Shown here piece after piece: positions 44,604 to 46,622 of a stretch of DNA of 64,000 nucleotides. The notes under the pieces were generated by a model. That model had not been told where the DNA came from and did not search any database. It was given only the letters and a program-made list of their open reading frames with translations. The stretch is from Alphaproteobacteria bacterium (GTDB taxonomy: Bacteria > Pseudomonadota > Alphaproteobacteria > Rs-D84), in contig JAFTPS010000013.1 of assembly GCA_017463185.1 (NCBI GenBank), positions 3,826 to 67,825 on the forward strand. Reading direction: 5' to 3'. The position numbers and the translations under genes are program-made. Each line of letters opens with the position of its first letter. Position 1 is the first letter of the stretch.

Positions 44604-44807
44604 ATGTTGAGAGTATTTTTATTTGTACTGTTTACCGTAATGGGTGCACACGCTGAATCTGTATCTATTGCAGGGACCTCGTATGTTGATACGGCGGTAT
44701 CAAGCAAGGTTGACACCGCCGCAACTGCGAGTCAAGAAATGGCCGGCTCGTACACTGTGTCGGGGACGTTGGTTGTTCCCACCCCACCGTTGCCCACCGC
44801 AGAGTAA
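44604..44807 (+). CDS. Small secreted protein (67 aa)
   Basis: Signal peptide MLRVFLFVLFTVMGAHA. SYVDTAVSSK motif is shared with the N-terminus of the next gene (EYIHNAIQNK). Pro-rich tail. Confidence 0.55.
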   Translation: MLRVFLFVLFTVMGAHAESVSIAGTSYVDTAVSSKVDTAATASQEMAGSYTVSGTLVVPTPPLPTAE

Positions 44808-44828
44808 AATAACAGGAGTCGGCCACCT

Positions 44829-46622
44829 ATGAAAAAGTTTATAATGTTTTGTATCGGTATATTTACCGTATTATCTGCGTATTCAGCACAGATAGTGAAT
44901 GTGGAATATATCCATAACGCGATTCAGAATAAATGGGATATAAGCCTGCCTTATAATAGTGAACTAAGTGAACCGCGCGTTGCGGCAAATATGAAATATT
45001 TACTGACCGCAGTTGATGTAGCGAACCAGGTAGTAAATGGAGCCGCGATTACGGACTATGGCAATGGAGAATATGCGACAATGGTTGCTGCTGATACGAT
45101 TGCGACGAACGCGGCTGTGGACGAGTTGATAACACAAAGTGGTTTAACATTTCGTACCACGTCGGACGCAACCAGTTTTTCTATTACTATATCGGCCACA
45201 GGGAACTTTACAATTGGATGGGGTGATGGTGTTGTAGAGACAATAGAAAGGACCGATACCACCGCCACCACATATTCACATACATACGATACTGCCAAAA
45301 CCCGTTATGTGAAACTGAGTGGTATGGCCACGGGGTATAATGTTAATGGTTTTGTTGCAAGTGTAAAAATTGGTACACCAACAAATATTGCGGGATTGTC
45401 AGGTTCATTGGGTGGGGTATTCCCAACATTGGATAGTGGTGAACAACCCAGTTTTTATGGTACATTTGGGGGGACAACAAATCTGACCAGCAGTATTCCC
45501 GCAGATTTATTTGATGGGGTCAAGGGGGCACCCCGCGAATATATGTTTGCAACATTATTTGATAACAGTGCAATTACTGGCTCAATTCCGTCAAATTTGT
45601 TTTCAGGGATTCAGGGCGCACCCGCCAAAGGTATGTTTGAATCAACTTTTCGTAATGCGTCGGGGTTGACCGGCTCAATCCCAGAGGATTTATTTGCGGG
45701 AATTTCCGGCAAGGCTCAGGATTATATATTTAATATGACATTTCGTGGTTGCAGTGGTTTAATTGGTTCTATTCCAGAAAATCTGTTCGCCGGGATTACT
45801 GGCGCACCAGGGGTTGCGTTTTTCTTTGCGACATTTCGTAATTGCAGTGGTTTAACTGGTTCTATTCCAGAAAATTTATTTGCCGGTATTGATGGTGCAC
45901 CACAGGAATCATGTTTTGCGGAAACTTTTGCATATTGTAGCAAGTTGACCGGAAAGATTCCCGAAAATCTGTTTGCCGGGGTCAAGGGTGCGCCCGCCGT
46001 TCAGATGTTCCACAGTACTTTTGCTGGTAATCGTAGAATGAGTGCGCCTATACCTGAAAACTTATTCGCCGGTATTGATGGTGCGCCTGCCGGCAGTATG
46101 TTTGCACAAACATTTGCGCAATCGGGAATATGTGGGGCGTTGCCCGAAAAACTGTTCGCGGGGGTAAGGGGGACGCCAGCACCAGCTATGTTCTATCAGA
46201 CATTTGTTGATTGTGGTGTATCGTCCATTCCAGCGGGACTGTTTGCCGGAATTCAAGGTGCACCCGCCAGCCAGATGTTTTATCGTACATTCCATTGGAA
46301 TTATGACTTTAATACAATTCCGGCGGGGCTGTTTGCGGGGATTGAGGGTGCACCCGCCAGTCAAATGTTCCAGGGTACATTTGATACCTGTCCAAATGTG
46401 ACATCAATTGGTGCGCCATTATTTGGAAATATATCGGGGGCTGCGGCATCAAATATGTTCTATGGAACGTTCAGTGGGGACAGTGGCCTGACCGGGGCGT
46501 CGGCCCAGTTGGCGGACGGGTCGTATTTGTACGAGAACTGGGAATTTACATCCGACCAGAATACATATAACGGCGCAACAAAATTGGATGACTATGAGAG
46601 TATGCCTGCGTATTGGAAATAA
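44829..46622 (+). CDS. Secreted repeat protein: PKD-like segment plus about 11 tandem 29-31-aa BspA/LRR_5-like repeats
   Basis: Signal peptide. FTIGWGDG...TYSHTYDTAKTRYVKLSG is PKD-like. The unit F..TF..CSGLTGSIPENLFAGI.GAP.... has its IP..LF motif at aa 223, 253, 284, 315, 346, 377, 408, 438, 467, 497 and 528. Confidence 0.7.
   Translation: MKKFIMFCIGIFTVLSAYSAQIVNVEYIHNAIQNKWDISLPYNSELSEPRVAANMKYLLTAVDVANQVVNGAAITDYGNGEYATMVAADTIATNAAVDELITQSGLTFRTTSDATSFSITISATGNFTIGWGDGVVETIERTDTTATTYSHTYDTAKTRYVKLSGMATGYNVNGFVASVKIGTPTNIAGLSGSLGGVFPTLDSGEQPSFYGTFGGTTNLTSSIPADLFDGVKGAPREYMFATLFDNSAITGSIPSNLFSGIQGAPAKGMFESTFRNASGLTGSIPEDLFAGISGKAQDYIFNMTFRGCSGLIGSIPENLFAGITGAPGVAFFFATFRNCSGLTGSIPENLFAGIDGAPQESCFAETFAYCSKLTGKIPENLFAGVKGAPAVQMFHSTFAGNRRMSAPIPENLFAGIDGAPAGSMFAQTFAQSGICGALPEKLFAGVRGTPAPAMFYQTFVDCGVSSIPAGLFAGIQGAPASQMFYRTFHWNYDFNTIPAGLFAGIEGAPASQMFQGTFDTCPNVTSIGAPLFGNISGAAASNMFYGTFSGDSGLTGASAQLADGSYLYENWEFTSDQNTYNGATKLDDYESMPAYWK
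45441..46493 (+). repeat. Tandem coding repeats with a period of about 93 nt
   Basis: attccagaaaatctgtt(c/t)gccgg(g/t)att... recurs. The protein-level period is 29-31 aa. Confidence 0.85.

Follow-up and report, generated by a model that had tools for sequence, protein, structure and literature searches.

The DNA analysed here, a stretch of 64,000 nt from contig JAFTPS010000013.1 of assembly GCA_017463185.1 of an Alphaproteobacteria bacterium (Rs-D84), is referred to as the window. It contains two adjacent genes on the plus strand which are preceded by a structured leader RNA and which are predicted to specify a small secreted protein and a large secreted protein carrying a leucine-rich repeat (LRR)-class solenoid. 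Both open reading frames (ORFs) named in an initial annotation of the region, encoding 67 and 597 amino acids, are present at the positions given there (Table 1), and only 21 nt separate the two genes in the ORF list. Upstream, a bidirectional hairpin terminator closes a preceding gene for a 137-aa protein and constitutes the 5' boundary of the unit. It is followed by a sigma-70-type promoter-like site with 11 of 12 consensus matches, the sole strong site on the plus strand in this region, which leaves a leader of about 245 nt ahead of the small gene. Promoter-like site, leader, two ribosome binding sites (RBS) and flanking terminators are thus all in place, and the small and the large gene are therefore predicted to constitute a self-contained bicistronic operon. 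No other copies of either family were found within the window.

Both proteins open with a segment resembling a signal peptide. As read from the sequence, a charged n-region and a hydrophobic stretch are followed by a potential cleavage site between AHA and ES in the small protein and between AYS and AQ in the large one. In both families, conservation begins directly past this segment. The two proteins therefore look like Sec-exported products, and the initial annotation of the genes as a secreted pair could be maintained in this respect.

Table 1. Features of the small-large operon and of its leader RNA in the window
Feature	Position	Strand	Basis or remark
Bidirectional hairpin terminator	44200-44235	.	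16-bp stem, then T-run
Sigma-70-type promoter-like site	44330-44358	+	TTGAAA, 17-nt spacer, TATAAT, TG extension; consensus match only
Structured 5' leader RNA, ~140 nt	44471-44603	+	covariance model, 142.9 bits
Leader copy 1, CTCCTGACC	44481-44489	+	
Leader copy 2, GGTCAGGAGG, contains Shine-Dalgarno (SD)-like AGGAGG	44493-44502	+	two small hairpins follow
Leader copy 3, CCTCCTGACC, anti-SD-like	44553-44562	+	overlaps 5' arm of terminator-like hairpin
Terminator-like hairpin in leader	44559-44583	+	T-run 44582-44586
RBS of small gene, GGGGGA	44592-44597	+	sequence
Small gene	44604-44807	+	ORF, 67-aa precursor; mature part IAGTSYVDTAVSSKVDTAATASQEMAGSYTVSGTLVVPTPPLPTAE
RBS of large gene, AGGAG	44814-44818	+	sequence; 10 nt before ATG
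Large gene	44829-46622	+	ORF, 597 aa
Signal peptide, large protein (aa 1-19, ending LSAYS before AQ)	44829-44885	+	sequence; model helix 2-13, low-confidence linker 14-19
N-terminal handle (aa 20-105)	44886-45143	+	three strand-helix elements VNVEYIHNAIQNKW, AANMKYLLTAVDVAN, EYATMVAADTIATNAAVDELI; model and conservation
PKD-like beta-sandwich (aa 106-191, F.I.WGDG)	45144-45401	+	model strands; profile matches in homologs
LRR-class solenoid, 11 units of 29-31 aa	45402-46508	+	consensus IPenLFAGISGAPAxxMFxxTFxgCSGLTGx
Solenoid C-terminal cap (GSYLYENW...YNGATKLDDYESMPAYWK) and stop codon	46509-46622	+	conserved columns
Intrinsic terminator right after large-gene stop	46621-46646	+	11-bp stem, then T-run
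Further leader copies	14975-15117 (-), 48720-48860 (+), 9111-9274 (+), 48330-48478 (-), 15077-15251 (+, weak)		

The most conspicuous part of the large protein is its repeat region, which the initial annotation had described as about 11 regular units. This description proved to be accurate. Ten IPxxLFxG anchors follow each other at distances of 30, 31, 31, 31, 31, 31, 30, 29, and 30 residues, a degenerate 11th unit comes after them, and this regularity far exceeds chance. Among 815 repeat intervals from 120 homologs, 49% measure 31 residues, 26% measure 30, and 23% measure 29. A tandem repeat at the DNA level was not detected in the large gene; the units are therefore old, and a recent expansion of the repeat could be ruled out. 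A structural model of the large protein was obtained with AlphaFold2 (AF2) on the basis of 40 homologs and reached a predicted local distance difference test score (pLDDT) of 94 and a predicted template modelling score (pTM) of 0.87. From the N- to the C-terminus, it consists of the signal helix, three strand-helix elements, a beta-sandwich including WGDG, a long solenoid of regular short strands, and a C-terminal cap with the conserved columns G564, L567, Y568, Y580, L586, D588, Y589, P593, and W596. The same cap is found ahead of a second PKD+LRR module in longer paralogs, and it also ends homologs from phages. The solenoid that AlphaFold was expected to reveal, if the initial annotation was right, is thus present in the model with approximately 11 units. 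It is curved, is built of tandem repeats, and can be superposed on solved LRR proteins. The large protein is assigned to the LRR-class solenoids, as a divergent, long-period type.

Assignment to a known repeat family was less straightforward. Pfam and NCBIfam scans of both window proteins yielded no match to LRR, LRR_5, DUF285 or PKD models, and a Pfam match of the large protein to HTH_upst_double_PIN (E 0.014) was dismissed as noise. The LRR_5 profile PF13306 did not match the window protein at E<=1 nor any of 40 family members at E<=0.01, and a precomputed match is listed for just one of 120 homologs. With the single sequence of the large protein as query, no meaningful match was obtained among PDB sequences, and Foldseek with the model detected no PDB entry at E<=1e-3, the five best being weak LRR matches. 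The family profile matched the plant receptor FLS2 (E 1.7e-5) via the segment L-T-G-x-I-P. In a comparison with predicted viral structures, the top-ranking matches were to phage proteins designated 'Leucine-rich repeat protein' (3.6e-15), 'Leucine rich repeat 5', and 'BspA family'; phage models named 'Bacterial surface protein 26-residue repeat' match structurally at E values of 4.4e-9 and 1.6e-3. A likeness to BspA-type LRR_5 units, as suggested in the initial annotation, is therefore apparent from structural relatives bearing these names, but it is not reflected by the LRR_5 and DUF285 profiles of Pfam and NCBIfam. A clean mapping of the repeats to a known family or period was not found.

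Repeats of the RI (ribonuclease inhibitor)-like LRR class consist of 28-29 residues. The period of 29-31 residues observed here is at or just over the upper edge of the described LRR classes (about 20 to 30 residues). The core pattern MFxxTFxgCSGLTGxIP shows a ladder-like position occupied by Cys or Asn as well as hydrophobic residues at regular spacing, but it is not the canonical LxxLxLxx(N/C). Compared with the BspA-type or TpLRR proteins (LRR_5, PF13306), the structural similarity holds, whereas neither the profile nor the period of about 23-26 residues agrees, and the window family differs further by its LTGxIP motif, its 'GAPAxxMF' insertion, its N-terminal module, and the presence of a partner gene. 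Proteins with DUF285 or the bacterial surface protein 26-residue repeat (PF03382, TIGR02167) are likewise secreted and have repetitive units of the 'MF..C..L' type, but their period is 26 residues, their Pfam and NCBIfam models do not match, and host lineage and domain architecture are different. Plant LRR ectodomains (FLS2, BRI1-like, TDR, PSKR) are eukaryotic, occur in the context of transmembrane kinases, and have a 24-residue period with a canonical LxxLxLxxN core; they can be superposed on the model over long distances, but with a large root mean square deviation and a different curvature, and the Foldseek matches to them are weak. The solenoid repeat appears to mix a 'F.gC..L' core resembling BspA and DUF285 proteins with the plant-type LTGxIP, and profile libraries miss this combination.

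Ahead of the solenoid, the initial annotation had placed a PKD-like segment. The beta-sandwich of the AF2 model at residues 106-191 with its WGDG motif supports this proposal, as do matches of Pfam PKD or PKD_4 in 8 of 40 homologs (best E 2.3e-6) and weak matches of the family profile to the PKD chains 4xed and 1wgo (E 0.06-0.4), but the window protein itself is not matched by a Pfam model. The remaining N-terminal part, termed the handle, contains helices at residues 25-36, 55-70, and 90-100, each after a short strand, modelled with a pLDDT of approximately 80-93, and its sequence is strongly conserved throughout the family. Comparison of the three handle elements by hhalign was not significant, except for an 8-column match between elements 1 and 2 (P 9e-4) which is suggestive, and an internal triplication is not claimed. 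When residues 18-105 were searched alone, only 206 clusters were obtained among 1.84 billion representatives, and the distance between the N-terminus and the first matched residue is about 17-35 residues in almost every one. In most full-length carriers, the handle is followed by the WGDG sandwich and LRR units, while a minority has other C-terminal regions, among them Cys-rich repeats and propeller-like GxxVAV/W repeats (proteins P0250, P0254, P0272, P0263, P0268, P0279, P0167, and P0264). Judged from these sequences, the handle is lineage-specific and behaves as an exchangeable module.

The large family is widely represented. More than 1,223 homologs were detected in a collection of 5.8 billion proteins, nearly all of them unnamed, and the few names are of the kind 'hypothetical protein [Alphaproteobacteria bacterium]'. 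In species-representative genomes, at least 342 stretches encode relatives of the large protein. The best 80 are all from metagenome-assembled genomes (MAGs) of gut origin, with hosts that include ruminants, chicken, and human; their labels are Alphaproteobacteria, Ca. Enterousia or 'Rickettsiales'. Many of these loci share a genome, and at least 13 come from a single MAG. Distribution of homologs had been suggested as a check in the initial annotation; its outcome is that the large family is greatly expanded in gut Alphaproteobacteria of the Ca. Enterousia/Rs-D84 group. These bacteria are widespread and uncultured, inhabit the gut of humans, livestock, birds, and insects, and are proposed to depend on a partner (PMC12306168). 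Their genomes are smaller than 1 Mb, lack a tricarboxylic acid cycle and respiration, and encode few transporters, and a life as obligate symbionts or parasites has been proposed; membrane or surface proteins without explanation, possibly serving cell-cell interaction, have also been noted (PMC12306168). A published description of the large protein family was not found in the literature.

Relatives are also encoded by phages. Four relatives on viral contigs align only to residues ~98-597 and lack both handle and signal peptide. Two of the phage PKD+LRR homologs, 416 and 412 aa in size and ending with the same cap, are located on IMG/VR viral contigs (L083, 5860-7110; L084, 5890-7128), in both cases after genes for baseplate wedge and tail fibre and before lysis genes. 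This is the position of a distal tail or receptor-binding protein, and the PKD+LRR body matches phrog_9915, a family of phage distal tail proteins. Phages appear to employ the same PKD+LRR head in such a role, whereas the window protein has a signal peptide and a handle in addition and the window pair resides in a chromosomal housekeeping context. A constant handle combined with a variable head that phages use as well is the main ground for proposing that the LRR part may be a binding head and the N-terminal part a module for attachment or assembly.

The small protein has a signal peptide of about 17 residues and a mature part of about 48 residues, and a MAG designated 'Alphaproteobacteria bacterium' encodes a protein with 100% identity to the 67-aa precursor. 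Databases contain 27 homologs, 54-114 aa in size, among which 15 positions are invariant; this indicates that the small gene is real and constrained. About 45 further copies are present in the related loci. Past the signal peptide the family consensus reads IASxxYV...KVDTxxxANQTMAGSYTVSGTLVVPTPPLPxAE. Longer members keep both ends and differ by inserts such as KYPSALAVKNAL and SGSYNDLTDKPTLGTAAA or by stretches resembling coiled coils. Through these inserted segments they match phrog_1446, a minor tail family (1.2e-9), phrog_22284, a tail fibre family (7.4e-6), and phrog_13892 (7e-5). The 67-aa protein itself has no significant match to a tail-fibre PHROG, only one to phrog_564 (unknown function, E 0.0021), and a Pfam match to DUF6133 (E 0.04) was dismissed as noise. 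The motifs '...YVD...' and 'QTIxGxKTF...P' are common in fibre proteins, and the two ends of the small protein appear to resemble them. The connection to fibre proteins made in the initial annotation therefore applies to the longer members of the family but could not be extended to the window protein as such. The AF2 model of the small protein as a monomer is poor (pLDDT 65, pTM 0.23) and contains one helix at residues 26-33, starting with S-Y-V-D, which is compatible with a chain that folds solely in an oligomer or on a partner.

Small and large genes are frequently found together. In all three genomes that were looked up via the small protein, a member of the large family is located 14-42 nt downstream, and the flanking genes differ in every case. 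The 82 loci studied comprise 75 large genes carrying the N-terminal motif, and a small-family gene immediately precedes 42 of them; of the paralogs examined, about 60% have one in this position. Tandem cassettes of the order small-large-small-large, composed of distinct subtypes, were detected at several loci (L046, L050, L066, L080, L047, L044, and L028). Cassettes duplicate as units, and the subtypes of the small protein co-segregate with N-terminal subtypes of the large protein across genomes. For example, a large protein of ~401 aa starting with IASMRYVH/...ELLEHNYG is accompanied by a small protein ending with ...TVTGAFKVPTPPLPNP.AD. Where the small gene is lacking, the large gene follows unrelated housekeeping genes, and several genomes with an unpaired large gene hold a small gene at another cassette.

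The N-terminal motif that both proteins were thought to share, Y(V/I)xxA(V/I)xxK, gave a different picture. The strings YVDTAVSSK and YIHNAIQNK are indeed present in the window pair, but the pattern Y[VI]..A[VI]..K occurs in only 24 of 120 large and 3 of 27 small homologs. The spacing of the Tyr and the Lys of KVD ranges from 5 to 64 residues among members of the small family, and the motif in this form is therefore not a conserved unit; being absent from most orthologs, it had to be abandoned. What both families do conserve is a shorter motif, h-[A/V]-[S/N]-x-x-[Y/W]-[V/I/L], located immediately past the signal peptide and present in 109 of 120 large and 26 of 27 small homologs. Some large paralogs show the intermediate form IASMRYVH, and the Tyr of the shorter motif is placed at a helix start in both AF2 models. 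The N-terminal likeness of the two families is suggestive of a structural similarity; homology was not demonstrated.

The region upstream of the small gene attracted attention by a 9-mer, CTCCTGACC, which is present six times in the window while 0.04 occurrences are expected. The copies form two clusters, one in the leader of the operon and the other upstream of a gene for a Cys-rich secreted protein (14340-14972, minus strand), and the two cluster regions of ~120 nt align closely. The same leader element precedes the small gene in other genomes. A covariance model built for it produced 30 matches at E<1e-5 across the window and 21 loci. Metagenomes scanned for the P1 hairpin pattern yielded 25 hits, four of which are true leaders and the rest mostly unrelated hairpins. 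In the four helices of the model, 96% of the cells are paired and 25 of 27 pairs show compensatory changes, values not reached in any of 500 shuffles, and controls in which the helices were slid gave about 34-50% pairing. Helix 4 corresponds to the terminator hairpin; among 30 sequences, 6 of its 7 pairs are compensatory and 96% of the cells are paired, and the U-run is conserved. Outside the model, an alternative helix can be formed by copies 2 and 3, with 91% pairing and compensatory changes in 6 of 10 pairs (0 of 500 shuffles; slid controls 33-71%), and it overlaps the 5' arm of the terminator by 4 nt. The three copies vary in concert, for instance CTCCTGACC/GGTCAGGAG/CCTCCTGACC in one version and CTCC-AACC/GGTT-GGAG/CCTCC-AACC in another. 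Copies 1 and 3 contain CUCC and copy 2 contains AGGAGG, and according to folds of single sequences a free CUCC copy could also mask the RBS. The arrangement corresponds to a terminator/antiterminator switch, to which a translational component may be added. Leader-peptide attenuation was ruled out, since a conserved upstream ORF is missing.

A scan with Rfam 15 at E<=1 revealed nothing over the structured leader; only sub-threshold matches to the upstream terminator hairpin were obtained. With the expression platforms of riboswitches and attenuators the leader shares the location in the 5' untranslated region, mutually exclusive helices, a hairpin with U-run just upstream of the RBS, and covariation of both helices. 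In contrast to known terminator/antiterminator leaders, it has no Rfam match and no leader peptide, a core resembling a ligand pocket was not identified beyond an A/U-rich loop, the switching segments are SD- and anti-SD-like, and it recurs before many different genes for secreted proteins. Fourteen of the leader matches precede small-family genes and four directly precede large-family genes. The other genes preceded by it encode an adhesin with a YadA anchor, a protein resembling outer membrane proteins, several proteins with signal peptides, and two helix-turn-helix proteins. Since the loci were picked around large genes, the enrichment of cassettes among these matches is biased, while the window and the metagenomic sample are unbiased; all three metagenomic copies that could be analysed are located before genes for Cys-rich proteins with signal peptides. 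From these data, the leader is a well-supported candidate for a new class of cis-regulatory RNA associated with secreted proteins in this lineage. The leader is recurrently followed by genes for small secreted proteins which are rich in Cys and have no family match (14340-14972 on the minus strand of the window, as well as loci L098 and L093); they represent a second uncharacterised secreted family in the lineage.

Taken together, these features can be combined into a model of the operon. It would yield a modular, Sec-exported large protein in which the handle is followed by a PKD-like spacer, the 11-unit LRR-class solenoid, and the cap. We infer a surface or extracellular location, with the solenoid most likely acting, like an adhesin or a receptor-binding protein, as the head that binds cells or a ligand present on another cell or surface. 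Such a head would be of use to a lineage that supposedly lives at the expense of other cells. This role is suggested by the presence of PKD+LRR in phage tail modules, by combinations of the handle with other heads, by the expansion of the family, and by the proposed symbiotic or parasitic life of the lineage. The handle, being constant, would attach the large protein to a common structure. The small protein would amount to no more than the ends of a fibre-type module, namely the helix start IAxxSYVD at the N-terminus and QxMAGxYTVSGTLVVPTPPLP at the C-terminus; it would probably not fold alone and would most likely oligomerise or dock on the handle as a short stalk or adaptor. As its gene, where present, is always upstream, its ends are of fibre type, it is apparently unstable alone, and these ends are constant while the heads vary, it is the best candidate for the attachment structure or adaptor. 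Constant ends combined with LRRs varying in number and type fit a contact with the constant handle. Expression of the pair would be gated by the leader: pairing of copy 2 with copy 1 would leave the terminator and the anti-SD-like segment free, and alternatively copy 2 would pair with copy 3 and thereby overlap the 5' arm of the terminator. Trigger and direction of the switch are conjectural in this scheme. To the overall picture of a secreted binding protein with a fibre-like partner and a gating leader we would give an even chance, while the putative contact between small protein and handle is a tentative proposal and rather doubtful when taken for itself.

Several observations weigh against this model. 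A Sec signal alone leads to the periplasm in a diderm bacterium, and no route for export across or anchoring in the outer membrane was identified. LRR-type models of Pfam or NCBIfam do not match the window protein, and an LRR-type Pfam family is not found in 40 relatives either. Profile-profile comparison by hhalign of the small family with the N-terminal module of the large one gave the same register, but it was not significant (probability 1-4%, P 0.01-0.04). In the leader, a conserved leader peptide is absent, and the terminator of the window copy has a long loop and five T's and was not called by a simple terminator scan. Finally, approximately 27 loci with enough upstream sequence, about 40% of the paralogs, do not have the small gene in cis, and in one MAG it is present at none of 13 loci. 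The small gene is therefore not obligatory, at least in cis, and the pair is best described as a recurrent, co-inherited, but non-obligatory operon.

The last observation leads to the first alternative, according to which small and large proteins are secreted independently and are neighbours only by virtue of belonging to a set of envelope genes under control of the same leader. It fits the paralogs without a small gene, the many unrelated signal-peptide proteins that the leader precedes, Cys-rich proteins and the YadA-anchor adhesin among them, and the lack of significance in the N-terminal comparison. Yet the gap of 14-42 nt is tight and conserved, without a terminator-like site called in it, the pair persists while the flanking genes differ, and cassettes duplicate as units with co-segregating subtypes. 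We regard independence therefore as unlikely, although it deserves to be kept in mind.

Lower still in probability are two explanations which assign the small protein or the shorter motif another function. In the first, the small protein is a ligand and the large one its receptor: the proline-rich C-terminus of the former would occupy the concave side of the solenoid, similar to plant peptide hormones in the ectodomains of LRR receptors, and would serve as inhibitor, chaperone or lid before the true target is encountered. Near-constant small segments would be unexpected for a groove ligand when number, period, and sequence of the LRRs vary greatly; moreover, many LRR paralogs have no small gene, and the resemblance to plant receptors extends to the fold class only. 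The chances of this explanation appear slim. About equally slim are those of the second, in which the motif h-(A/V)-(S/N)-x-x-Y-(V/I) would be a lineage-specific sorting or export signal for a dedicated outer-membrane system. Its location in both families, 3-7 residues past the predicted cleavage site, is suited to such a function, and the intermediate form in some large paralogs would agree with it. On the other hand, AF2 places the motif as an integral part of the folded handle (strand and helix start), other secreted proteins controlled by the leader do not have it, candidate export machinery was not identified, and a motif this short is matched by chance at ~2e-4 per position, a rough estimate from typical amino-acid frequencies.

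That the cassette is a phage or prophage module of tail fibre and receptor-binding protein, as the PKD+LRR body in the tail modules of two viral contigs, its match to phrog_9915, and the tail-fibre motifs of small-family members might imply, is highly improbable and was largely refuted by the signal peptides of both window proteins, which the phage homologs lack, by the handle, which is missing from all viral matches, by a cellular context with its own promoter-like site and terminators, housekeeping flanks differing between genomes, and no adjacent phage genes, and by copy numbers that may reach a dozen or more per genome.

Surface proteins of the LRR type are already known to be expanded in bacteria associated with hosts. 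New are the long period with its hybrid motif, the lineage-specific handle, the fibre-like mini-partner, and the leader RNA, none of which has been described or annotated. The large family is among the most expanded in Rs-D84/Ca. Enterousia, is unannotated, and probably mediates contact with other cells; it thus provides candidate molecules for recognition of a host or partner. The long-period bacterial LTGxIP repeat widens the known range of LRRs and is missed by current profile libraries, and the leader RNA is amenable to direct testing in vitro or in metatranscriptomes. As a more far-reaching speculation, which we consider improbable as a whole, Rs-D84/Enterousia could possess a modular surface display in which the fibre-like mini-protein forms a stalk, the handle, whose three strand-helix elements within a single chain possibly mimic a trimeric fibre junction, plugs in interchangeable long-period LRR, Cys-rich or propeller-like heads, and one new class of terminator/antiterminator leader switches the secreted repertoire. 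It would represent the contact apparatus of an obligate gut epibiont or parasite sharing heads with phages.

Regarding the neighbourhood of the operon, a gene for a 1242-aa protein with a signal peptide and weak N-terminal matches to ankyrin is located upstream (39959-43687, plus strand), and between it and the operon lies the gene for the 137-aa protein (43792-44205, plus strand), for which no family matches were obtained. At locus L009 of another MAG, a similar large protein (117-3287) and a 140-aa protein (3356-3778) precede a large-family gene without a small gene. Recurrence of genes like these two, for a 1242-aa-like and a ~140-aa protein, suggests a wider conserved neighbourhood. Convergent with the operon, a gene on the minus strand (46646-47725) encodes a protein with signal peptide of the choloylglycine hydrolase/penicillin V amidase family (Pfam CBAH, 2.4e-64), which scores under the cut-offs of the NCBIfam equivalogs and is consistent with a gut habitat. 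It is followed by a gene for tRNA-Gln (47868-47941, minus strand) and a small ORF with a weak match to HTH_17 (E 0.0028, under cut-off). Past ~48 kb (48000-64000), the GC content falls and the GC skew changes its sign; this compositional shift could mark an integrated element or be a mere change in strand organisation.

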